From Clostridia bacterium (GTDB lineage: Bacteria > Bacillota > Clostridia > Oscillospirales > CAG-272): a stretch of DNA of 64,000 nucleotides. Both the position numbers and the translations under genes were made by a program. Shown here piece by piece: positions 2,509 through 63,750 of the stretch (the first letter of the stretch is position 1; each line of letters begins with the position of its first letter). The notes under the pieces were generated by a model, which ran no database searches, was not told where the DNA came from, and was given only the letters and a program-made list of their open reading frames with translations. The stretch lies in NCBI GenBank assembly GCA_017446155.1, contig JAFSRI010000053.1, positions 170,830 to 234,829 on the forward strand. The letters run 5' to 3'.

Positions 2509-4038
2509 ATGAATAATCAAACAGTTGTGATACTTGACTTCGGCGGTCAATATAAGGAGCTCATCGCAAGGCGGGTAAGAGAATGCGGCGTCTATTCGGT
2601 GATCGTTCCGTTTGACACGCCGACAGAAAAAATAAATGAGATGAACCCGTGCGGCATAATCTTTACGGGCGGTCCGAACAGCGCGTATGACGCTGAGTCG
2701 CCGAAATGTGACGAAAGATTGTTTAACCTCGGCGTGCCAATACTCGGCATATGCTACGGCGCGCAACTTATCGCATTTATGCTTGGGGGCAAGGTCATTC
2801 CGTGCAAAAAAAGCGAATATGGCATAACCGATTGCACGGTTGATACAAACAGCGTCCTCTTCCGCGGACTTGAAAGCAAGCAGCGGGTACTTATGAGCCA
2901 CACGGACATGATCTCCGTATTGCCGCAAGGATTTGACAACATTGCCGCAACCGCAATCTGTCCATGTGCCGCGTTTGAAAACGGCAAAAGAAAAATTTAC
3001 GGTGTGCAGTTTCATCCGGAAGTCGAACATTCGGAAAACGGCACGGAAATGATAAGAAAATTCCTGTTTGACGTTTGCGGCGCCGTTGGCGATTATTCCA
3101 TGGAAAACTACCTTGAAGAGCAAATTGACGCCGTGAGAAAACAGGTTGGCAAAAAGAGAATACTGCTCGGTCTTTCGGGCGGGGCGGATTCATCCGTTTG
3201 CGCGGCTCTGCTTTCTCGCGCGGTGCCCGGGCAGGTCGTATGCGTTTATATCGACCACGGCTTTATGCGCAAAGGGGAGAGCGAGGCGATAAAAACGATT
3301 TTCGGCGCGCGTGATCTCGACCTTGTTTTAGTTGACGCAAGTGAAATTTTCCTTTCAAAACTAAGCGGTGTTACAGATCCTGAAAAAAAGAGAAAAATAA
3401 TCGGCACGGAATTTGCAAGGGCTTTCGAGCGCGAATCGAGCAAGCTCGGAAAGCCGGAATTTCTGGCACAGGGAACGATCTATCCCGACGTCGTAGAGTC
3501 GGGCAAGAATAAGTCGGCTGTGATAAAGAGCCATCACAACGTCGGCGGACTGCCGGAGGATCTCGGATTTGAAGGAGTTGTCGAGCCGCTGAGGTACTTG
3601 TTCAAAGACGAGGTGAGGAAAATAGGGAAACTGCTCGGATTGCCGGATGAGCTTATTTATCGTCAGCCGTTTCCGGGGCCGGGGCTTGCGATACGCGTTA
3701 TCGGCGAAATAACGCGCGAAAAACTCGATATTCTGCGCGAGGCGGACGCTATCGTGCGTGAGGAGATAGGCAAGAGCAAACGGACGAAAGCAGATCAATA
3801 TTTCTGTGTTTTGACCGATACAAGAAGCGTAGGCGTCGTGGGAGATTTCAGAACATATGAATATACTCTGGCGGTGAGGGCGGTAACCACAAGCGATTTT
3901 ATGACTTGCCAATTCGCGCGGATACCTTACGGATTGCTTGCAAAGCTCTCTTCAAGAATAACGAACGAGGTAAAAGGCGTCGGACGAGTGGTGTATGACA
4001 TAACGGGAAAGCCGCCCGCTACGATAGAGTGGGAATGA
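2509..4038 (+). CDS. guaA: GMP synthase (glutamine-hydrolysing)
   Basis: 509 aa. It has an N-terminal class I amidotransferase domain (GICYGAQL, FHPEV), an ATP-PPase P-loop (SGGADSSV) and the canonical C-terminal PPATIEWE. Confidence 0.95.
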   Translation: MNNQTVVILDFGGQYKELIARRVRECGVYSVIVPFDTPTEKINEMNPCGIIFTGGPNSAYDAESPKCDERLFNLGVPILGICYGAQLIAFMLGGKVIPCKKSEYGITDCTVDTNSVLFRGLESKQRVLMSHTDMISVLPQGFDNIAATAICPCAAFENGKRKIYGVQFHPEVEHSENGTEMIRKFLFDVCGAVGDYSMENYLEEQIDAVRKQVGKKRILLGLSGGADSSVCAALLSRAVPGQVVCVYIDHGFMRKGESEAIKTIFGARDLDLVLVDASEIFLSKLSGVTDPEKKRKIIGTEFARAFERESSKLGKPEFLAQGTIYPDVVESGKNKSAVIKSHHNVGGLPEDLGFEGVVEPLRYLFKDEVRKIGKLLGLPDELIYRQPFPGPGLAIRVIGEITREKLDILREADAIVREEIGKSKRTKADQYFCVLTDTRSVGVVGDFRTYEYTLAVRAVTTSDFMTCQFARIPYGLLAKLSSRITNEVKGVGRVVYDITGKPPATIEWE

Positions 4039-7423: not shown

Positions 7424-7458
7424 CAAAAAAAGTATCCCCATTGCGGGATACTTTTTTG
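7424..7458. terminator. Bidirectional terminator between convergent genes
   Basis: agtatccc / gggatact hairpin flanked by an A-run (7424-7430) and a T-run (7453-7457). Confidence 0.8.
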
Positions 7459-7465
7459 AATACTT

Positions 7466-8092
7466 TTATTTTTGTTCATCGCCGATTATAAGTTCGCTTG
7501 CATAAGGGAGAGAACGCACCCAATCGCAAAGGATGTGCCACTCGTCGAGCTTATGAAACTGACGCGCATGAAACATATTCCTGAGTACTTCATAATTGAG
7601 CGTCACCGTTCTCATCTGTTCATAACTTTCGGGCAAGAGCTGAATAAGACTGTACCAATATGTTTTATCTTTTGTTTCAACAAACTTACTCCTCAGCTCT
7701 TCAAGCACGACTATAAGCGCTTTAAGGGATTTAAGCGACGTTTCGTTCATATGATCATATGAAAAGTCGGAAAGCTCTATCGGCTTTGAGTGAATTTTGT
7801 GCATTGTGCTTGTTGAGTTAGCCACCGTTCCGACTTTGTATGTGTCAAACTCTTTCCACCAATAAAGAGGCCCCGTGATGTCGACGGAAACAAATATTTG
7901 GCGGATGAATTTTCTGTCGTCGCTGCCGCCGGCGCAAAGACGTTTGGCAAGGCCGAGGTCGTTTTCGCCGAGAATATAGTTTCCGTCCTCGTCATAGGCG
8001 CTGTCGGAACGCGCCCAACTGTTCATCGGGTTGCGTGCTCCGCGCATTGCGTTTTCAAGGTTCATAACAGCTGTTCTTTCAAGTTTAAGCAT
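7466..8092 (-). CDS. ThyX-fold (Thy1-like) protein lacking the canonical ThyX motif
   Basis: 208 aa that I aligned from memory to T. maritima ThyX. [10 protein letters not shown] matches [35 protein letters not shown] matches [39 protein letters not shown] matches TVNARSLMNFLNLR. In this alignment RHR becomes TYK and SGR becomes TST. The start is 4 nt after the permease stop, with GGAGAG upstream. Confidence 0.6.
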   Translation of the reverse strand: [208 protein letters not shown]

Positions 8093-8096
8093 AGGG

Positions 8097-9071
8097 TTAT
8101 CTCTCCTCTCGGTAGTAGTTTACGCCGAGCGATGCCGGCGGCTGAGTTTCTTTTTTGCCGAAGATGCTTGTTATTATAAGAACGATGACAGTGATTATAT
8201 ATGGGAACATATCAAAGATTTTAAGCTGGAAAAACGAAAGAGATTTTATATCCATAGCGAGAATTGACAGTCCGCCGAAAACTATCGAGCCGAATATTGC
8301 GACGACGGGTTTCCACATGGTAGCGATTACAAGCGCAACCGCAAGCCAACCGAACGAGTCTATGGCGGCTTCGGCAAGCGTCGTGCCGTTTGTCTTGTCC
8401 ATTACGTAATAAAGTCCGCCGAGACCCGCTATGGCACTGCCGAGAATAATGAACGCATATTTGTATTTTGCAACGTCAATGCCGACGGCGTCCGCCGTTG
8501 CGGGGTTCTCGCCTACCGCGCGGAGATGAAGCCCTGTTCGGGTTTTGTTGAGAAGAATGGAAGCGAGAATCGCCACTATAACCGCAAGATAAACGAGAAT
8601 ACCGTGCGAGAGAAATACTTTTCCGAACCAGCCCATGTCAGATGAGAACGGGAAAAGATTTTTAAAATATTTGCTTGCCATGACGAAATTTGTCATATCG
8701 ATGCGCTTTGCAAAGAATTTCATAAATCCGACTCCGAACGTTGTCATTGCAAGACCTGTTACGTTTTGGTTGGCTTTCAGGGAAACGGTGAGGAACGCGT
8801 AGACGAGTCCCGCCACTCCCGCGAAAAGCATAGAGAAGATTATCGATATGAGAACAAGCCAAAAACCGCTCATGTTTGCGGGATCCGCAACGCCGCCGGA
8901 GTAGAGCATAACGCCATAGCTTCCGCCGAGCGCGCCTATACACATGATGCCGGGTATGCCGAGGTTAAGGTTGCCCGCCTTTTCGGTGAGAGTTTCGCCG
9001 ATACAGCCGAAGAGGAAGATTGTTCCCATGCTGATGGCGTCAACAAGGATGGTTGAGATCGTATCAAACAT
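8097..9071 (-). CDS. ABC transporter permease (nucleoside/BMP-type, NupQ/YufQ-like)
   Basis: 324 aa polytopic protein sitting next to a paralogous permease, a duplicated ATPase and a BMP-family binding protein. Confidence 0.8.
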   Translation of the reverse strand: MFDTISTILVDAISMGTIFLFGCIGETLTEKAGNLNLGIPGIMCIGALGGSYGVMLYSGGVADPANMSGFWLVLISIIFSMLFAGVAGLVYAFLTVSLKANQNVTGLAMTTFGVGFMKFFAKRIDMTNFVMASKYFKNLFPFSSDMGWFGKVFLSHGILVYLAVIVAILASILLNKTRTGLHLRAVGENPATADAVGIDVAKYKYAFIILGSAIAGLGGLYYVMDKTNGTTLAEAAIDSFGWLAVALVIATMWKPVVAIFGSIVFGGLSILAMDIKSLSFFQLKIFDMFPYIITVIVLIITSIFGKKETQPPASLGVNYYREER

Positions 9072-9072
9072 T

Positions 9073-10218
9073 TTATTTGCCCTCCTTGCCTTTGTGAGAT
9101 TTTTTCTTTATCCCCGCCAATATGTCGTGCATCCTTTGACTGGGCTTTATCTTGTATCTTATAAAGAATTCACATCCGATGATGCAGAAGAATATTATGC
9201 CGATTACGATGTTTGCATAGTCGGTGCTTTTAAGCTGGAATACGGTGCTGACGTTTATTGCGCCCGTGTTTAAGAACACAACAAAGAACGATGTGAACAC
9301 CATAACGAGCGGATCGAAATTCGCAAGCCACGCAACGAGAATTGCCGTAAAGCCCTTGCTTCCGCAAATTGAGGTGTTGACTGTATGTTCAAGGGAACCG
9401 GCGAAGATCGCGCCCATGATTCCGCATATCGCGCCGGAAAGAATAAGCGTTCTTATAATTACCTTTTTAACGTTTATTCCGACGTATTTTGCGGTGTTCA
9501 CGCTTTCACCAACGAGAGAAACCTCAAAGCCGTGCTTTGTGTATTTCATATATACGAACATGAAAATGTCGATTATCACAGCTACTATTATCACCAGAAC
9601 GTATTTGTTGCCGATGTTCGGAAACCACCCGTGGTGAGTCATAAGGTTTACGATGCCGAGGTTGCCCGAACCGCGCGGATCCCACGCGAACGAAAAGTAA
9701 GCGACAAGACCGAGCGCTATATAGTTCATCATAAGGGTGAAAAGCGTTTCGTTTGTTCCGAAGAATGCCTTGAATATAGCAGGGATGACCGCCCATATAA
9801 TGCCCGCCAGAATGCTGGTGATTATCATAAGCACGATTATAAGCCAATCGGGGAGTTTGTCGGTCAAAAATTTCATACACGCAATAGCGACCAGACACCC
9901 TATAAGCACCTGACCGTTTGCGCCCATGTTCCAGAATTTCATCTTGAAAGCCGGAATAACGGCAAGCCCGAAAATAAGCAACACCGCCGTGTCTTTAAGC
10001 AACGTCCAAACGTCTATAAACGCGCCTGTAACGAGCGTTGCGTATATTTTAAACGGATTTTGTTTTATCAAAATCACGCTCATGACGCCTATTATCACGA
10101 GAGCCGCGAACACACCGCCCACTCTTACGAGCAGCGCCTTCCACCGCGTCATATTTTCATTTTTTGAAATGTGGAACAGAGGTTCGTTTTTAGTTCTTTC
10201 GATTTTCATCGTCGTCAT
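9073..10218 (-). CDS. ABC transporter permease (nucleoside/BMP-type, NupP/YufP-like)
   Basis: 381 aa polytopic protein. There is a 1-nt gap to the next permease, and it overlaps the end of the ATPase gene. Confidence 0.8.
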   Translation of the reverse strand: MTTMKIERTKNEPLFHISKNENMTRWKALLVRVGGVFAALVIIGVMSVILIKQNPFKIYATLVTGAFIDVWTLLKDTAVLLIFGLAVIPAFKMKFWNMGANGQVLIGCLVAIACMKFLTDKLPDWLIIVLMIITSILAGIIWAVIPAIFKAFFGTNETLFTLMMNYIALGLVAYFSFAWDPRGSGNLGIVNLMTHHGWFPNIGNKYVLVIIVAVIIDIFMFVYMKYTKHGFEVSLVGESVNTAKYVGINVKKVIIRTLILSGAICGIMGAIFAGSLEHTVNTSICGSKGFTAILVAWLANFDPLVMVFTSFFVVFLNTGAINVSTVFQLKSTDYANIVIGIIFFCIIGCEFFIRYKIKPSQRMHDILAGIKKKSHKGKEGK

Positions 10219-11815
10219 CTCCTCCGTTCATCTCATTTGCGGCGTTCAGCCATTCATCTTCGGTCAGGTTGCTGTCTTTTGCAATGCCGAAGTTCTTTTC
10301 TTTTTGCTCAACCGTGAGGTTCACCGCGCCCGTCATCATAAGGCCGAGTTCTTCTTTTGTTACCTTTGAAGCGTGAACGATGCCCATTACTTCTCCATGG
10401 CAGAGCACCATTATTTTATCGCACAGCGCAAGCATAACGTCGAGGTCTTCCCCCACGAACAGAATGCCGACGCCGTTTTTCTTTTGCTCGTTTAAAATAT
10501 CGTATATTGCATATGCCGAGTTTATGTCGAGTCCGCGGACGGGGTATGCGGTGACGATAACGTTCGGCCCGGCCTCGATCTCACGTCCGACGAGTACCTT
10601 TTGCACGTTGCCGCCGGAAAGACGTCTTACGGGTGTTTCGGTCGATGGGGTGACGATGTCGAGTTTGGCGATAAGCGCCTCTGCTTTTGCGCGTGCCGTT
10701 TTTCTGTTTACAAACGGCGTCTTTCCGTCACCGTATGTTTTCAGCATCATGTTGTCGGTGATGGAAAACGACGGGGCTAAGCCCATGCCGAGTCGATCTT
10801 CGGGAATAAAACTCATCGATATTCCTTTTTCTATTATCTGTTTCGGCGGTATACCGACGATGCTCTCGCCCTTGTGCATTATAAAACCTTTTTCGATTTT
10901 ACGAAGTCCGGCGATCGCCTCGCACAGCTCTTTCTGCCCGCAACCGGCAATGCCCGCAACGCCGAGAATTTCTCCGCCGCGAATATAAAAGTTTACGTTT
11001 TTAATGGCGACGTTGCCGTCGTCGGCTTTAATGCTGAGGTCCCTTATTTCAAGCAAAGGGCGGGTGTGCTCGACTTCCGCACGATTTATTTCAAGCGTTA
11101 TTTTCTTGCCTACCATCATTTCGGTAAGCTGTTTTTCGTTCGTTTCTGACGTGTTGACCGTGCCTATGTATTCACCTTTGCGAAGAATGGAAACTCTGTC
11201 GGAGATTTCCATTACTTCGTTAAGCTTGTGCGTAATGATTATTATCGACTTTCCGTCGTCACGCATTTTGCGAAGCACGGCGAACAGTTTTTCTATCTCC
11301 TGTGGAGTAAGAACTGCCGTCGGCTCGTCGAGAATCAGAATGTTTGCACCGCGGTAAAGCACCTTGATGATCTCAACGGTTTGCTTTTCGGAAACAGACA
11401 TTTCATGGACTTTCTTTTTCGGATCTATATCGAAACCGTATTTTTCCGCGATTTCGCGGACACGGGAATTTACAAGTTTAAGGTTAAATTTTTCTTTTAT
11501 TCCTAAAATAATATTCTGTGCGGCAGTGAACGTTTCCACGAGCTTGAAATGTTGGTGGATCATGCCGATTTTATATTTGAATGCGTCTTTTGGCGACGCT
11601 ATGACAGCGGGCTGTCCGCCGACGAATATTTCGCCTTCGTCGGGGAAGTAGATACCCGAGATCATGTTCATAAGCGTTGTTTTGCCGGAGCCGTTTTCTC
11701 CGAGCAGGGAAAGGATCTCATTTTTGTATACGGTGAGGTTTATGTTTTTGTTTGCGGCAACTTTTCCGAAACTTTTGGAAATATTGCGAAGTTCAAGGGC
11801 GGTTTCTTTTGCCAT
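10190..11815 (-). CDS. ABC transporter ATP-binding protein with two fused ATPase domains
   Basis: Walker A GENGSGKTT, signature LSVSEKQ, a second signature LSGGNVQK, and Walker B ILILDEPT. Confidence 0.9.
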   Translation of the reverse strand: MAKETALELRNISKSFGKVAANKNINLTVYKNEILSLLGENGSGKTTLMNMISGIYFPDEGEIFVGGQPAVIASPKDAFKYKIGMIHQHFKLVETFTAAQNIILGIKEKFNLKLVNSRVREIAEKYGFDIDPKKKVHEMSVSEKQTVEIIKVLYRGANILILDEPTAVLTPQEIEKLFAVLRKMRDDGKSIIIITHKLNEVMEISDRVSILRKGEYIGTVNTSETNEKQLTEMMVGKKITLEINRAEVEHTRPLLEIRDLSIKADDGNVAIKNVNFYIRGGEILGVAGIAGCGQKELCEAIAGLRKIEKGFIMHKGESIVGIPPKQIIEKGISMSFIPEDRLGMGLAPSFSITDNMMLKTYGDGKTPFVNRKTARAKAEALIAKLDIVTPSTETPVRRLSGGNVQKVLVGREIEAGPNVIVTAYPVRGLDINSAYAIYDILNEQKKNGVGILFVGEDLDVMLALCDKIMVLCHGEVMGIVHASKVTKEELGLMMTGAVNLTVEQKEKNFGIAKDSNLTEDEWLNAANEMNGGDDDDENRKN

Positions 11816-11909
11816 TTTGGCCTCCCGGAAATAAATTTGAAAAAAACAAAATACAGCAAAGCGGAGAGTAGTCTCCGCTTTGCTTTTAAATTGGTTTGGA
11901 TTGACTGTA

Positions 11910-13133
11910 TTAGCCGTAGTTACGATCGAGTAGTGTGATACCGTCGATTTCTACGTCGAAGTAAGGTGCCGAACGGTATTCGGATTCATGGAAGTAACCG
12001 CCGGATACAACTTCCGTGTCTTTTGTGAAAGCGTCGTCGTAGTCAACGTCTGCTTTGTAGGATGTGAGTTTTTCGCCGTTTACAGTGATGAAGTTATCTT
12101 TTGAAGTGTCGAATACGTGGAGAGTGCCTGCCTTGAAAGCAGCGAGAGCTTCGTCAAGTTTAGCCTGCGTTCCTTCTGCCGCAACCTTTGAAAGAGCTTC
12201 GAGCTTAACGGAACCGGTAGCGATAGTGCCTGTCCAGTCTTTGTCGATATTCTTGTCTTCGAGAACGCAGTTGATCATGTACTCATAGAAGGGAGTCCAG
12301 TCGATCTTGGAAGCAACTATGTATGTGTTGGGACCCTGAGCCTCTGTGCTGCCGTTGTAGGAAACGTTCGGAACGCCGGCTTCTTCGCAAGCGTTGGGAG
12401 CGCCGTAAGAGTCAGCGTGCTGAGAAATAAGAACGCAACCGTCATTGATGAGCGACTTTGCAGCTGTATATTCCTTATCTGTATCGTACCAAGAACCCGT
12501 GAACTTAACCTTCATCGTAACGGAAGGACATACGGATTTAGCGCCGAGATAGAAAGATGTGTAACCGGACATAACCTCTGCATATGTGAAAGCGCCGACG
12601 TAACCCATAACCGCTTCTTCCGCTGTGATCTTGCCTGCTGAAATCATTTCGTTGAGTTTCATGCCTGCCGCGATACCGGCGAGGTATCTGCCTTCATAGA
12701 TAGCTGCGAAAGCGTTTGAGAAGTTGTCAAGTCCGAGAGTGTGGGCTTTTGTGCCGGTGGCATGGCAGAAACGAACGCTCGGGAACTCCTGAGCGGCCTG
12801 AACGAGGAAGTCTTCGTGACCGAAAGAGTCGGCGAACACTACCTGGCAACCCTGGTTTACGCAAGCCTTCGCTTTGTCGTAGCAGTCGCTGGATTCATCA
12901 ACGCCTGTGTAAAGAACGAGCTGATCCTTGGACAAACCGAGGTTTTCAAGCGCTCGATACATAGAATCGATGAAGTTTTTGTCATATGTGGATGTGTCGT
13001 CGTGAAGTGTGATAAGACCAACTTTAAGAGTGCTCTTATCAACTGTTTTCTTTTCGCCGCACGATGTGCCGACGAGAGCTATTGCAACGAGCATTGTGAG
13101 CGCAAGAACGATAGAAAGAATTTTCTTTGCCAT
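11910..13133 (-). CDS. BMP-family (PnrA/Med-like) lipoprotein, substrate-binding component
   Basis: Lipobox LVGTSCG and BMP-like sequence (KVGLITLHDDTSTYDKNF). The start at 13133 follows GGAGG. Confidence 0.85.
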   Translation of the reverse strand: MAKKILSIVLALTMLVAIALVGTSCGEKKTVDKSTLKVGLITLHDDTSTYDKNFIDSMYRALENLGLSKDQLVLYTGVDESSDCYDKAKACVNQGCQVVFADSFGHEDFLVQAAQEFPSVRFCHATGTKAHTLGLDNFSNAFAAIYEGRYLAGIAAGMKLNEMISAGKITAEEAVMGYVGAFTYAEVMSGYTSFYLGAKSVCPSVTMKVKFTGSWYDTDKEYTAAKSLINDGCVLISQHADSYGAPNACEEAGVPNVSYNGSTEAQGPNTYIVASKIDWTPFYEYMINCVLEDKNIDKDWTGTIATGSVKLEALSKVAAEGTQAKLDEALAAFKAGTLHVFDTSKDNFITVNGEKLTSYKADVDYDDAFTKDTEVVSGGYFHESEYRSAPYFDVEIDGITLLDRNYG

Positions 13134-13192
13134 TTTTGTGTCCTCCAAAAAAATTTATAAATAAGAAAGCTGCGCTTTCCTTATTTCGTTTT

Positions 13193-13765
13193 TCAGCAGA
13201 AGCGGATTCCGTTTTCGGGATCCATTTCCGCAATTTTCGCCAGAGCGTCAACTCTGTATCCGCGGTGTCTGATGGCGTCACCGCCGCCCTGATAGTTTTT
13301 CTCGATAGCCACGGCGCACCCGACAACCTCGGCACCTGCCTGCTCGACGATCGAAATAAGCCCGTTGAGTGCCTCGCCGTGAGCGAGAAAGTCATCGACG
13401 ATAAGCACCTTTTCGCCTTTTGAGATGAACTCTTTTGATACCGTGGCGGTGTAAGAATTGCCGTGGGTGAACGATTTTACCGTGGCTGTGTAAACGTCGC
13501 CGTTCTGAGTGGACGCACGGCTCTTTTTGGCAAAAACAACGGGAACATGCAACTGTACGGCAAGTGCCGTGGCAATCGCTATTCCCGATGCTTCGATAGT
13601 CAATATTTCAGATATTTTTTCCCCGTTATAGAGGCGGGCAATTTCTTTGCCCATTTCAACAAGAAAATCAACGTCAATACGCTGATTGAGAAAACAGCCC
13701 ACTTTGAGTATATCTTTGGATATGACCGTGCCTTCTTTTACGATTTTTTCTTCAAGAGCTCTCAT
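13193..13765 (-). CDS. xpt: Xanthine phosphoribosyltransferase
   Basis: MRALEEKIVKEGTVISKDILKV aligns with B. subtilis Xpt [22 protein letters not shown]. The PRPP loop VLIVDDFLAHG is present. I chose the start at 13765 from this alignment; it lies 10 nt after GGAGG. Confidence 0.9.
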   Translation of the reverse strand: MRALEEKIVKEGTVISKDILKVGCFLNQRIDVDFLVEMGKEIARLYNGEKISEILTIEASGIAIATALAVQLHVPVVFAKKSRASTQNGDVYTATVKSFTHGNSYTATVSKEFISKGEKVLIVDDFLAHGEALNGLISIVEQAGAEVVGCAVAIEKNYQGGGDAIRHRGYRVDALAKIAEMDPENGIRFC

Positions 13766-13786
13766 CGCGGCCATACCTCCTTTCAA

Positions 13787-13920
13787 AATAAAAAAACAGA
13801 CTCGAAAAGCCTGTTTGCCGACAAAAACAAATCCACAGGGAAATGTTTAAATTACCGATAGTCGCAACTTGGCGTGCGGTAGAAACATTCGGGCCATCAT
13901 ATCCGAACCTATATCGGCAA
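13787..13920 (-). promoter_or_regulatory. Purine riboswitch (guanine/xanthine class) with terminator expression platform
   Basis: The minus-strand RNA reads CCGAUAUAGGUUCGGAUAUGAUGGCCCGAAUGUUUCUACCGCACGCCAAGUUGCGACUAUCGG. P1 is CCGAUA/UAUCGG. The GGAUAUG..GG L2 core, the GUUUCUACC junction and GACUAU (C at the specificity position) are all present. It is followed by the ACAGGC/GUCUGU hairpin and UUUUUUUAUUUU, which ends just before the xpt RBS. L2 and L3 differ slightly from the B. subtilis xpt aptamer. Confidence 0.85.
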
Positions 13921-13942
13921 AACAGTATTGATTTGTGATTTT

Positions 13943-13971
13943 ATTATAACTTGCCGATTTTTAAAAATCAA
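13943..13971 (-). promoter_or_regulatory. Sigma-A type promoter for the riboswitch-xpt operon
   Basis: Minus strand reads TTGATT (13971-13966), 17 nt spacer, TATAAT (13948-13943). Confidence 0.7.
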
Positions 13972-14669: not shown

Positions 14670-15359
14670 ATGGGCAAAACGACTGCAATAATTTGCGCGA
14701 TGACAAAAGAAGCGGAAACGCTGATAGGTATGATGACGGACAAAACCGTGGAGAAAATATCCGGCAGGGAATATATAAAAGGAAAACTTTGCGGGAAAGA
14801 CGTCGTTATAGTCGTATGCGGAATAGGCAAAGTGCTCGCCGCTTCGTGTGCGCAGACGATGATACTTAAATATTCGCCCGACGTTGTGATAAACACAGGC
14901 GTCGCCGGTTCTCTTGATGAACACCTTAAAATATATGATATTGTAATCGCTTCTCATGTCGTTCAGCACGATTTTGATACAAGCGTCATCGGTGATCCGC
15001 TCGGATACATTGCGGAGCTTGACACGGTGAAAGTGCAGGCGGACGACGATACAAACAAAACGCTTGCACGTTGCGCGGAAAAGCTGAGATATAATTACGT
15101 AGAGGGCGTCGTCGCAACGGGAGACCAATTTATCGACGGCGCGGAAAAGAAAGCATATATCAAAGCTAATTTCGGCGCTTCCGCGTGCGACATGGAAGGG
15201 GCGGCTATCGGCACGGTTTGCCGTGTGGCGGGCGTAAAATTTGCGGTATTAAGGTCAATTTCCGACAGCGGCGACGGCGTTGAATATTCGAGCTTTGTCG
15301 TCGAGGCTGTGAAGAGATCGACCGCGGTGATAAAAGAGTATCTTTTGCAGACAAAATAA
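14670..15359 (+). CDS. mtnN: 5'-methylthioadenosine/S-adenosylhomocysteine nucleosidase
   Basis: 229 aa with Pfs-like motifs: IICAMTKEAE, VVCGIGKV, ACDMEGAAI and RSISD. Confidence 0.9.
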   Translation: MGKTTAIICAMTKEAETLIGMMTDKTVEKISGREYIKGKLCGKDVVIVVCGIGKVLAASCAQTMILKYSPDVVINTGVAGSLDEHLKIYDIVIASHVVQHDFDTSVIGDPLGYIAELDTVKVQADDDTNKTLARCAEKLRYNYVEGVVATGDQFIDGAEKKAYIKANFGASACDMEGAAIGTVCRVAGVKFAVLRSISDSGDGVEYSSFVVEAVKRSTAVIKEYLLQTK

Positions 15360-63476: not shown

Positions 63477-63750
63477 CAGACCATGCCGGCCGGGGAGTCA
63501 GCGGTGCCTTGTAACCCGCAATCCGCTACAGCGGGGGCAAATACGTCAATGAGGTATGTTTTTGGGTGGTCTGCGTTGCATCACCCGTGCGTTGAAGGAT
63601 GGGTCTTGCGCAATTCGATGCCGTGAATCATGTCAGGCGGGGGACCGAGCAGCATTAAGCGGATTTTCGGATGTGCCGCGAGGCTGCCTGTCCCGAGTGC
63701 GGAATGTAACGGCGCATGTAAACGCATATCGAAGGGCGGTGCATGGTCTG
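63477..63750 (+). ncRNA. ffs: Signal recognition particle RNA, large Bacillus type with Alu domain
   Basis: The terminal helix pairs CAGACCAUGC (63477-63486) with GCAUGGUCUG (63741-63750). The Alu-domain sequence GGUGCCUUGUAACCCGCAAUCCGC is present. The helix 8 region GUCAGGCGGGGGACCGAGCAGC and UGUGCCGCGAGGCUGCCUG match my recollection of B. subtilis scRNA. It has the classic position upstream of dnaX. Confidence 0.9.

Follow-up and report, generated by a model that had tools for sequence, protein, structure and literature searches.

A candidate thymidylate synthase of predicted ThyX fold encoded at the end of a guanine-type riboswitch, xpt and nucleoside transporter operon in a Clostridia bacterium

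The window, a 64,000-nucleotide stretch of contig JAFSRI010000053.1 from a Clostridia bacterium (assembly GCA_017446155.1), carries a single minus-strand unit in which a promoter-like site, a purine riboswitch, xpt, a Bmp-type binding-protein gene, an ATPase gene, two permease genes and a 208-aa ORF follow one another. All of these elements were recovered at the positions given by the first-pass annotation. The features of the unit are as follows:

13943..13971, minus strand: sigma-70-like promoter, TTGATT-17-TATAAT (consensus scan only, 10/12 matches)
13839..13936, minus strand: purine riboswitch aptamer, guanine-type (Rfam RF00167, 46.0 bits, gathering score 37)
13786..13825, minus strand: expression platform, an antiterminator partner GUCGGCAAACAG followed by a terminator hairpin (13816-13794) and U-run (terminator scan, sequence, MFE fold)
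13193..13786, minus strand: xpt, xanthine phosphoribosyltransferase (NCBIfam equivalog NF006671, 229 bits, cut-off 177; Pfam Pribosyltran)
11910..13148, minus strand: Bmp/PnrA-type substrate-binding lipoprotein of a nucleoside-type ABC transporter (Pfam PF02608 Bmp, 94.5 bits)
11855..11884, no strand assigned: terminator-like hairpin, 13-bp, G+C-rich (terminator-like scan of both strands)
10190..11815, minus strand: ABC ATPase with two ABC_tran domains (Pfam PF00005, two stretches, 147 bits)
9073..10218, minus strand: ABC permease 1 (Pfam PF02653 BPD_transp_2, 92 bits)
8097..9071, minus strand: ABC permease 2 (Pfam PF02653 BPD_transp_2, 120 bits)
7466..8092, minus strand: 208-aa ThyX-fold protein, candidate thymidylate synthase (phrog_6721; AF2 and Foldseek; family and context analyses)
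7426..7457, minus strand: intrinsic terminator closing the operon (13-pair hairpin, then T-run)

The promoter-like site lies 7 nt upstream of the riboswitch match, which spans the full-length Rfam model (positions 1-102) and includes its three-way junction. With the ligand-contacting residues taken from PMC12282948, the cmscan alignment shows an aptamer core of the U22/U51/C74 type: J2/3 is the canonical GUUUCUACC and J3/1 reads ACU, which bears out the C noted earlier at the specificity position, and guanine is the predicted ligand. The loops depart from the Rfam model, L2 being lengthened, with one inserted base and a mismatched closing pair, and P3/L3 being shortened, with five deletions and four flagged non-standard pairs; the GG in L2 and the CC in L3 are retained. 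In the ligand-free MFE fold an antiterminator pairs the 5' strand of P1 with GUCGGCAAACAG, and the terminator hairpin (13816-13794) and its U-run directly precede the RBS. This model predicts that the riboswitch acts as an OFF switch at the level of transcription.

A guanine-type aptamer with a terminator platform upstream of xpt is shared with the xpt-pbuX riboswitch operon of Bacillus (PMC12282948, PMC5393184), from which the window operon differs in having an ABC system in place of PbuX, in adding a 3' cistron for a ThyX-like protein and, as against the Rfam consensus, in the longer L2 and shorter P3/L3 of its riboswitch. The NF006671 alignment begins at residue 8 of the xpt ORF, and the real start is, judging from the sequence, likely to be the ATG at 13765, which follows GGAGG by 10 nt. 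The transporter is of the Bmp/PnrA type, since a single operon encodes, by Pfam, a Bmp protein, two BPD_transp_2 permeases and an ATPase of two fused domains, the set also found in NupNOPQ-like nucleoside ABC transporters. The hairpin at 11855..11884 sits between the genes for the binding protein and the ATPase and is possibly an intra-operon attenuator or stabiliser. Genes for GuaA and MTA nucleosidase lie near the operon.

The 208-aa ORF begins 4 nt (CCCT) past the stop of the last permease, as described before, with GAGAGGAGAG as its RBS, and an identical permease-ORF spacing is found in a 91%-identical relative (L249) and in another homologous locus (L008). Its exact database match is NCBI MBQ9511377.1, a 'hypothetical protein'. 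The HMM search proposed by the first-pass annotation gave no Pfam match (E<=1), PF02511 and PF00303 (ThyA) included, and no NCBIfam match (E<=10) for the window protein, nor was there a PDB sequence match. It does match PHROG 6721, a phage family with no function assigned, over residues 1-203 and profile positions 7-216 of 218 (E 5.2e-68). The AF2 model (pLDDT 76.9, pTM 0.67; motif loop 88-98 below 50) retrieved 138 Foldseek matches in the PDB at E<=1e-3, and the best 50 of these 138 are all ThyX (E 1.3e-6 to 8.5e-5, TM 0.42-0.56), led by Helicobacter pylori ThyX 3ah5 (E 1.3e-6, TM 0.56); in the BFVD the top matches are unnamed members of the same family, followed by THY1/ThyX. The ThyX fold claimed earlier is thus supported at the level of predicted structure. 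At the level of sequence, ThyX homology was detected solely via relatives of the window protein: Pfam Thy1 was matched (E<=1) by 12 of 51 relatives, P0158 alone scoring above the curated cut-off (29.3 vs 24.8 bits), and profile-profile comparison to ThyX was not significant for the window protein's subfamily.

The residues of ThyX were mapped by aligning blocks without gaps, with A68-P69 / A74-P75 as the anchor. Compared with ThyX (FDTS; PF02511, TIGR02170), the family has the same predicted fold and a similarity that is weak but recurs via relatives, and it keeps the blocks AARxS / ARNP, GH..FEH / G..H.KF.RQ and LP...N....N....R..H, with the uracil-binding Arg (Tm R174 = R177) among their residues. 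The signature RHRxxSxNExSGRY, in contrast, is replaced by one that ends in (T/C)STMH. In ThyX the RHR/SGR motif binds the FAD phosphates and dUMP (PMC6514825). The motif RHRxxSxxxxSxR(Y) is absent from the family, which has instead T84-Y85-K86 ... T89 ... T/C94-S95-T96-M97, conserved as such; the block alignment places RHR (Tm 78-80) at T84-Y85-K86 and S88-G89-R90 at T94-S95-T96, so that the loss of an intact motif, reported earlier, holds. Among the ThyX ligand contacts Tm H53, E58, R147, R165 and R174, R174 alone is kept (R177, 100%); H53 corresponds to H59, which is 87% conserved in the family and Asp in the window protein, E58 is replaced by R64, R147 by I150 and R165 by E168, and the Y91 lid by M97. 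The Tm T55/Mtb S71 contact is likewise replaced in this alignment. Almost all FAD and dUMP contacts of ThyX (RHR, T55/Mtb S71, R165, S88, R90 and the Y91 lid, with roles given by PMC6514825, and R147) therefore appear to have been replaced, and ThyX chemistry is not to be assumed for the family.

The replacements are themselves conserved. Among 78 diverse members, D30, Y85, P154 and R177 reach 100% and S25, D45, K61, S93, S95, H180 and E184 99%, and the replaced motif positions are near-invariant (Y85 100%, S95 99%, T84 94%, K86 and T96 92%). No conserved cysteine occurs in these 78 members, so that a ThyA-type nucleophile is not evident. The family comprises at least 8000 matches at 90% clustering and at least 4,432 clusters at 50% identity, and occurs in at least 590 species genomes, in which the cellular copies are chromosomal and lie among housekeeping genes, and in at least 582 viral contigs. 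The window gene, with a dN/dS of 0.047 against 0.030 for the adjoining permease, is under strong purifying selection. The term 'degenerate', applied to the protein earlier, is contradicted by the near-invariant replacement residues, the size of the family and this dN/dS; from sequence and structural models the family would rather be a very large, strongly conserved clade within the ThyX (Thy1) superfamily that had gone unannotated.

The recurrent partner of the family gene is dihydrofolate reductase (DHFR, folA), and the two genes often overlap by 4 nt. In 12 loci (9 of 80 species genomes, one at +2) DHFR follows directly downstream on the same strand, at distances of -4 to +15 nt, and this linkage is limited to organisms labelled Lachnospiraceae or members of Lachnospiraceae; most of the remaining gene contexts of the family are uninformative. 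Around 80 DHFR genes, thyA was found immediately upstream in 61 loci, the family gene in 8 and both in none, an exclusivity that applies around folA and within +-10 kb. In these 8 loci the family gene is directly upstream in four (3-49 nt), divergent in one (188 nt) and at about 1.2 kb in three. ThyX was found beside none of the 80 sampled DHFR genes, and the window and loci L001-L088 showed neither ThyA nor ThyX. The pairing with folA is a difference from canonical ThyX; organisms with thyX often lack folA. The family gene occupies the slot of thyA (PF00303) in the thyA-folA operons of Bacillota, directly upstream of folA and often overlapping it, and none of the 80 DHFR-anchored loci has it alongside thyA, whereas the protein has no homology to ThyA, another fold and no conserved cysteine nucleophile. 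All that links it to ThyA is position and presumed function.

The phage copies sit among NrdD, dUTPase, MazG and dNMP-kinase genes. Counted over 80 viral loci, the neighbours are NrdD (19), MazG (16-18), DUF3310 (13-14), dUTPase (10-11), HD (9-10) and guanylate-kinase-like proteins (7), and ThyX had no matches in these loci. A single ThyA-like protein was found there, at a locus (L220) that also carries the family gene and a carbamoyltransferase, and it has Asp at the position of E. coli N177, the mark of dCMP-specific ThyA homologs. Since the ThyA-like protein is of the dCMP type, the family gene is left to fill the place of 'td' in a T4-like set (dCMP deaminase, dUTPase, Tmk-like kinase).

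We favour, at slightly better than even confidence, the reading that the 208-aa protein is an unrecognised thymidylate synthase of the ThyX superfamily with a rebuilt active site. The family enzyme would convert dUMP to dTMP with methylene-tetrahydrofolate, using a flavin bound in a new way or none, and would take the place of ThyA/ThyX in many Clostridia of the gut and mouth and in the phages of these bacteria. In the window, its gene as last cistron of the xpt/Bmp operon behind a guanine OFF riboswitch would place dTMP synthesis within a nucleotide-supply transcription unit. A guanine OFF switch and an internal hairpin ahead of the sole thymidylate synthase would be an odd arrangement, unless read-through or an internal promoter supplies the window gene. 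It is unlikely, in our view, that the family is instead a neofunctionalised ThyX paralog that modifies another pyrimidine nucleotide, as a UMP/dCMP methylase or hydroxymethylase, and is no housekeeping thymidylate synthase. The rebuilt active-site residues and the abundance of the family in phages would agree with such a role, as would the pairing with a dCMP-type ThyA homolog and a carbamoyltransferase in L220, which suggests base modification, and there is a precedent for a change of substrate in PolB, a thyX paralog of polyoxin biosynthesis that acts as a UMP/dUMP C5-methylase and is restricted to an antibiotic pathway in Streptomyces (PMC5954106). Both PolB and the family are ThyX-superfamily members that depart from the canonical role; the family, however, lacks the ThyX motif and is a widespread single gene in Clostridia and phages. 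The chromosomal copies among housekeeping genes in at least 590 species genomes also argue against a modification enzyme, as do folA as the sole recurrent metabolic partner, with the family gene in the thyA slot and never with thyA, and the lack of other recurring modification genes near cellular copies. Less likely again is that the family represents a mechanistically new, third kind of thymidylate synthase, with a ThyX fold that has lost the FAD-binding RHR and with CH2-H4folate as donor of both carbon and hydride, or with a cofactor other than FAD. With CH2-H4folate as hydride donor such an enzyme would release dihydrofolate, which would explain why it is so tightly coupled in translation to DHFR (and NfnAB) at the position of thyA.

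A role linked to its operon was suggested by the first-pass annotation, in which a ThyX-like scaffold in a purine-sensing salvage and uptake operon pointed to a different nucleotide or nucleoside substrate or to non-catalytic binding. The altered dUMP/FAD-contact residues and the co-transcription stand, but the functional tie to purine salvage does not: the neighbourhood survey by which that annotation proposed to judge it shows no conserved linkage. Adjacency to an xpt/Bmp operon was found in 2 of 80 species loci (L008, L073), plus the window and its close relative L249. In L073 the gene order differs and the family gene lies upstream of xpt, where it would escape control by a leader riboswitch. 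The homologous operons examined, L008 and L073 included, gave no purine riboswitch, and 19 further loci gave no riboswitch of whatever class. That the scaffold was repurposed for purine or nucleoside salvage, with another substrate or for binding only, is the least probable of the readings: it draws on the co-transcription and 4-nt spacing in the window, L249 and L008, on the nearby GuaA and MTA nucleosidase genes and on the adjacency in L073, where some persistence is suggested by a neighbourhood kept despite the other order and just 46-62% protein identity, but phage copies keep company with pyrimidine and deoxynucleotide genes (dUTPase, dCMP deaminase, NrdD) and not with purine salvage. Very unlikely, too, is a pseudoenzyme that keeps the ThyX fold and, by binding a nucleotide or folate, serves DHFR or other enzymes as regulator or partner. 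The loss of the canonical catalytic and ligand-binding residues and the lack of a match to any curated enzyme family would fit it, but the dense invariant set of polar and charged residues (D30, D45, K61, R64, Y85, S93, S95, H98, R177, H180, E184) is what one would rather expect of an active site, the alternation with thyA beside folA is the pattern predicted by enzyme replacement, and the fusion of some members (P0231) to an NMP kinase suggests that what the protein makes is a nucleotide substrate. The placement behind the guanine-OFF-riboswitch xpt/Bmp operon is lineage-specific and does not define the function of the family; the conserved linkage is that with DHFR, in the usual position of thyA, which points to thymidylate synthesis and not to a purine substrate or a non-catalytic role.

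In favour of a thymidylate synthase, besides the kinase fusion, is that other family members (P0139 and P0152) are interrupted by HNH/NUMOD4 homing endonucleases. Phage thymidylate synthase and RNR genes are known to attract such insertions, and the family, like ThyX, is found in phage nucleotide-metabolism modules and is hit by homing endonucleases.

The 208-aa ORF that closes the riboswitch-xpt-Bmp-ABC operon of the window encodes a protein identical to MBQ9511377.1 ('hypothetical protein [Clostridia bacterium]'), and it matches phrog_6721, a phage family of unknown function, with an E value of 5e-68. Profile-HMM comparison, proposed as a check in the first-pass annotation, placed the protein in no Pfam or NCBIfam model; there was no match among PDB sequences, where searches with the single sequence and with a 51-sequence family profile gave nothing relevant, and PADLOC returned no matches. 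The ThyX (flavin-dependent thymidylate synthase) fold assigned to it in that annotation is supported by structure prediction: the AlphaFold2 model (43 homologs as input; pLDDT 76.9) had 138 Foldseek matches in the PDB at E ≤ 1e-3, and the best 50 of these 138 were all ThyX, led by the H. pylori protein (3ah5; E 1.3e-6, TM 0.56) and including T. maritima TM0449. When viral models were searched by structure, unnamed relatives of the window protein (hereafter the ThyX-like family) ranked first, followed by THY1/ThyX proteins. Pfam Thy1 was matched at E ≤ 1 by 12 of 51 diverse family members, of which one (P0158) scored above the curated cut-off (29.3 versus 24.8 bits), and no family other than Thy1 recurred in their Pfam matches. 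Alignment of the family by hhalign with T. maritima ThyX alone or with a six-sequence ThyX alignment was not significant (probability below 1%, N-terminal half only). A small ThyX HMM gave sub-threshold matches only, yet these formed mutually consistent ungapped blocks; the ThyX alignment combined sequences verified against PDB entries 1kq4, 2cfa and 3gwc with the PDB-output sequences of 3ge9, 6j61 and 4p5a.

Residues of T. maritima ThyX (Tm numbering) and their counterparts in the ThyX-like family, from the ungapped block alignment
Tm R28: family R20
Tm H53: family H59
Tm E58: family R64
Tm A68-P69: family A/G74-P75
Tm R78-H79-R80: family T84-Y85-K86
Tm S88-G89-R90-Y91: family T/C94-S95-T96-M97
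Tm R147: family I150
Tm L150-P151: family L153-P154
Tm N163: family N166
Tm R165: family E168
Tm R174: family R177

In ThyX, FAD is held by the RHR motif, a Ser/Thr at Tm 55 and R165, and dUMP by the first Arg of RHR, S88, R90 and R174, with Y91 serving as a lid (PMC6514825). The ThyX-like family keeps only R174 (its R177) of these contacts and the lid, and the replacements of RHR by TYK and of SGR by TST, previously read from the sequence alone, hold in the block alignment. They do not make the protein 'degenerate', as the first-pass annotation called it. In an alignment of 78 members, including phage proteins at 25-38% identity, D30, Y85, P154 and R177 are invariant, S25, D45, K61, S93, S95, H180 and E184 are 99% conserved, and R20, R64, M97 and H98 are 97% conserved, so that the replaced residues are themselves conserved; between the window and L249, a 91%-identical relative, dN/dS was 0.047 for the ThyX-like gene versus 0.030 for the adjacent permease. 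Because of this conservation and the low dN/dS, we conclude that the ThyX motifs have been swapped for another conserved constellation and not eroded. No cysteine is conserved across the 78 members; at position 94, 46 of them have C, 25 have T and 7 have another residue. Codon 59 of the window gene (7916-7918), which aligns with ThyX His53, encodes Asp as opposed to the His found in 87% of the family; D, E or Q occupy this position in other members of the 78-sequence alignment, and residue 59 is therefore not essential to the family.

The family is very large. At least 8000 matches were found in a 90%-clustered database, with none of the best 120 below 70% identity to the window protein, and 50%-identity clusters numbered 4,432 at E ≤ 1e-3 and 1,251 at E ≤ 1e-30. 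In a one-genome-per-species collection, at least 590 of 600 pattern-matched stretches encode relatives (Lachnospiraceae, Oscillospiraceae, Erysipelotrichaceae-type taxa and others among the stretches listed), as do at least 582 of 600 from viral contigs. Of 50,697 cultured-phage records, 28 carry the ThyX-like family, against 4,046 with ThyA, the classical thymidylate synthase, and 2,681 with ThyX. All database names seen for family members were 'hypothetical' or 'uncharacterized'. Reviews recognise ThyA and ThyX as the only thymidylate synthase families (PMC6514825, PMC2826268), and a full-text literature search, whose coverage is not exhaustive so that a description elsewhere is possible, found no description of the ThyX-like family.

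The minus-strand transcription unit described in the first-pass annotation, from promoter to ORF, has all of its parts in place:

13971-13943, minus strand: promoter-like TTGATT-17-TATAAT (motif match)
13936-13839, minus strand: purine riboswitch aptamer (full-length Rfam match, 46.0 bits versus a gathering score of 37)
13816-13794, minus strand: terminator hairpin and U-run, directly 5' of the xpt RBS (terminator scan, sequence)
13765, minus strand: probable true start ATG of xpt (NCBIfam equivalog NF006671, 229 bits versus a cut-off of 177)
3' of xpt, minus strand: Bmp binding protein, double ABC ATPase and two BPD_transp_2 permeases (Pfam)
8092-7466, minus strand: 208-aa ORF, starting 4 nt past the permease stop, with GAGAGGAGAG ahead of it
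7457-7426, minus strand: strong terminator, 3' of the 208-aa ORF (terminator scan)

In guanine-I riboswitches the ligand is contacted by U22, U51 and C74 (PMC12282948). The window aptamer has guanine-type residues at the equivalent positions: cmscan aligned J2/3 as the canonical GUUUCUACC and J3/1 as ACU, which places a C at the specificity position. The unusual loops remarked on earlier were also recovered, as an insertion in L2 and, in P3/L3, as five deletions together with several pairs flagged as non-standard. A same-clan Rfam model matches the same segment (13839-13936, minus strand) at a lower score. In the 2'-dG-I riboswitch class L3 is likewise shortened; judged by sequence, the window aptamer appears to have the short L3 in common with that class, but a J2/3 core of the guanine-I type. 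In the ligand-free minimum-energy fold the 5' strand of P1 pairs with GUCGGCAAACAG, overlapping the terminator stem, and riboswitch and platform are predicted to switch transcription OFF in the classical way. Between the Bmp and ATPase genes, a gap of 94 nt holds a perfect 13-bp G+C-rich hairpin (11855-11884), which sits between riboswitch and ThyX-like gene and could act as an attenuator or transcript stabiliser and set an excess of binding protein. The operon is flanked by MatE, cyclophilin, GuaA, M20 peptidase, HAD and DUF4097 genes on one side and by MTA/SAH nucleosidase and PilT-like ATPase genes on the other; since these are housekeeping genes, a prophage origin of the region was ruled out. 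GuaA (GMP synthase; 2509-4038, plus strand) and the nucleosidase (14670-15359, plus strand) lie on either side of the operon region, and in the homologous operon L008 a nucleosidase gene is likewise divergent from xpt, which is a loose purine-related neighbourhood. A bacterial large SRP RNA (RF01854, 167.8 bits) was found at 63481-63746, plus strand.

Gene calling and clustering in 86 loci (the window, five contigs and 80 species genomes) revealed very diverse neighbourhoods of the ThyX-like gene. It adjoins an xpt-Bmp-ABC operon only in the window, L008, L073 and L249: L249 keeps the window arrangement, L008 has the same gene order and 4-nt spacing, and in L073 the ThyX-like gene precedes xpt by 278 nt, outside the reach of a leader riboswitch. 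No purine riboswitch was detected upstream of the L008 and L073 operons at gathering or relaxed E-value thresholds, nor any riboswitch in 19 further family loci, including all those among them in which the gene precedes folA, the DHFR gene. The purine-salvage role suggested in the first-pass annotation therefore fails by that annotation's own measure, because homologs show no conserved linkage to purine salvage genes; what stands of it is the observation of a ThyX scaffold with altered TYK and TST residues in this operon. Since the adjacency persists in three fairly divergent genomes (transporter identities 46-62%), it may be a sign of loose grouping by 'nucleotide supply'.

The neighbour met most often is DHFR (dihydrofolate reductase), whose gene follows immediately on the same strand in 11 loci and at position +2 in a twelfth, with gaps of -4 to +15 nt. 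Nine of the 80 species genomes are among these loci, and each of the nine is labelled Lachnospiraceae or a member of that family. DHFR is often followed by NfnA/NfnB-like genes, and a NUDIX gene is often found upstream of the ThyX-like gene. The whole cluster (NUDIX, ThyX-like gene, DHFR, NfnA-like, NfnB-like) recurs in Lachnospiraceae (L001:7517-11452, L089, L091, L162 and similar loci); its NUDIX protein had no specific NCBIfam equivalog match. The NfnAB type is an NADPH-generating ferredoxin:NADP oxidoreductase. In one metagenome locus DHFR-NfnAB is followed downstream by a Clostridiales-1 sRNA (L102:8407-8531, plus strand; RF01699, 48.4 bits versus a gathering score of 48). In the reverse test, 80 metagenome loci fetched by DHFR alignment were scanned with T. 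maritima ThyX, the window protein and E. coli ThyA; one of the matches to the E. coli ThyA query (L095) was confirmed as ThyA by NCBIfam. thyA lies immediately upstream of folA in 61 of the 80 loci. Eight loci carry the ThyX-like gene: in four it directly precedes folA at a distance of 3-49 nt, in one it is divergent and 188 nt away, and in three it is found on the opposite strand at about 1.2 kb. The other 11, four of them with less than 700 nt upstream of folA, have neither gene; no locus has both, and none has ThyX. Around folA, the ThyX-like gene thus alternates with thyA as partner, the pattern expected for functional replacement of a thymidylate synthase. A strict in-situ displacement of thyA was rejected, because NfnAB follows in loci with the ThyX-like gene but mostly not in thyA-folA loci; it is the operon slot that is replaced, not one gene in an otherwise identical locus.

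ThyA or ThyX homologs were also absent from the window and from loci L001-L088, and in 80 viral loci (1.28 Mb) we found no ThyX and a single ThyA-like gene (in L220). In annotated phages the ThyX-like gene lies within replication and nucleotide modules, and its viral neighbours encode the anaerobic ribonucleotide reductase NrdD (19/80 loci), MazG (16-18/80), DUF3310 (13-14/80), dUTPase (10-11/80), an HD phosphohydrolase (9-10/80) and a guanylate-kinase-like kinase (7/80, four times directly downstream).

On balance, we are inclined to read the family as thymidylate synthases that belong to the ThyX superfamily but have a rebuilt pocket. R177 would read the O4/N3 edge of uracil, phosphate or glutamate groups could be met by seven conserved basic residues (R20, K61, R64, K86, R161, R177 and K181), and conserved aromatics (Y77, W78, W79, Y85, W146, Y167 and W185) could stack flavin, pterin or base. 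As no cysteine is conserved, a ThyX-like mechanism that does without an enzyme nucleophile is favoured over a ThyA-like one, and as RHR and R165 are lost, any FAD used would presumably be bound in another way; the linkage to DHFR and NfnAB would be compatible with NADPH-dependent flavin chemistry or with production of DHF. Two observations weaken this reading: the folA linkage is confined to one lineage, and the window gene sits behind a guanine OFF switch and the 11884-11855 hairpin. The main rival explanation is that the family may be a ThyX paralog with a shifted substrate, and PolB, itself such a paralog, shows that such shifts are possible (PMC5954106). We do not file the window protein as a ThyX member, because it scores below the HMM threshold, has no signature motif and departs from ThyX in its ligand contacts, although the predicted fold is shared; we place it in a distinct clade of the ThyX superfamily, whose members probably function as thymidylate synthases.

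Thymidylate synthesis is essential, and ThyA and ThyX are both drug targets. If a third, motif-less ThyX-like family indeed replaces thyA beside folA, hundreds of Clostridia from the gut and mouth, together with their phages, would lose an annotation gap at an essential step, thymidine auxotrophy and sensitivity to antifolates, 5-FU and ThyX inhibitors in the microbiome would have to be predicted anew, and the family would be a natural experiment on a ThyX scaffold functioning without the canonical flavin and dUMP contacts. For annotation, the lesson is that an 'odd' operon neighbour gave the clue to the family, though that neighbourhood does not define it.

Several family proteins are composite: P0231 carries a fused guanylate-kinase-like NMP kinase and P0158 a fused DUF3310, and in P0139 and P0152 the family protein is interrupted by HNH/NUMOD4 homing-endonuclease domains. 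The viral locus L220 (L220:7603-12872; IMGVR_UViG_3300045988_164467) encodes a Tmk-like kinase, the ThyA-like protein, dUTPase, an HTH protein, the ThyX-like protein, a carbamoyltransferase and dCMP deaminase. Its divergent ThyA-like protein has LPYD in place of LPFN177 of E. coli ThyA, and an Asp at the N177 position, as in T4 dCMP hydroxymethylase and N177D mutants, confers cytosine specificity; the gene set is therefore reminiscent of the T4 hmC pathway, the ThyX-like gene taking the 'td' slot. The module looks like a pathway for a modified cytosine, possibly a carbamoylated hydroxymethyl form.
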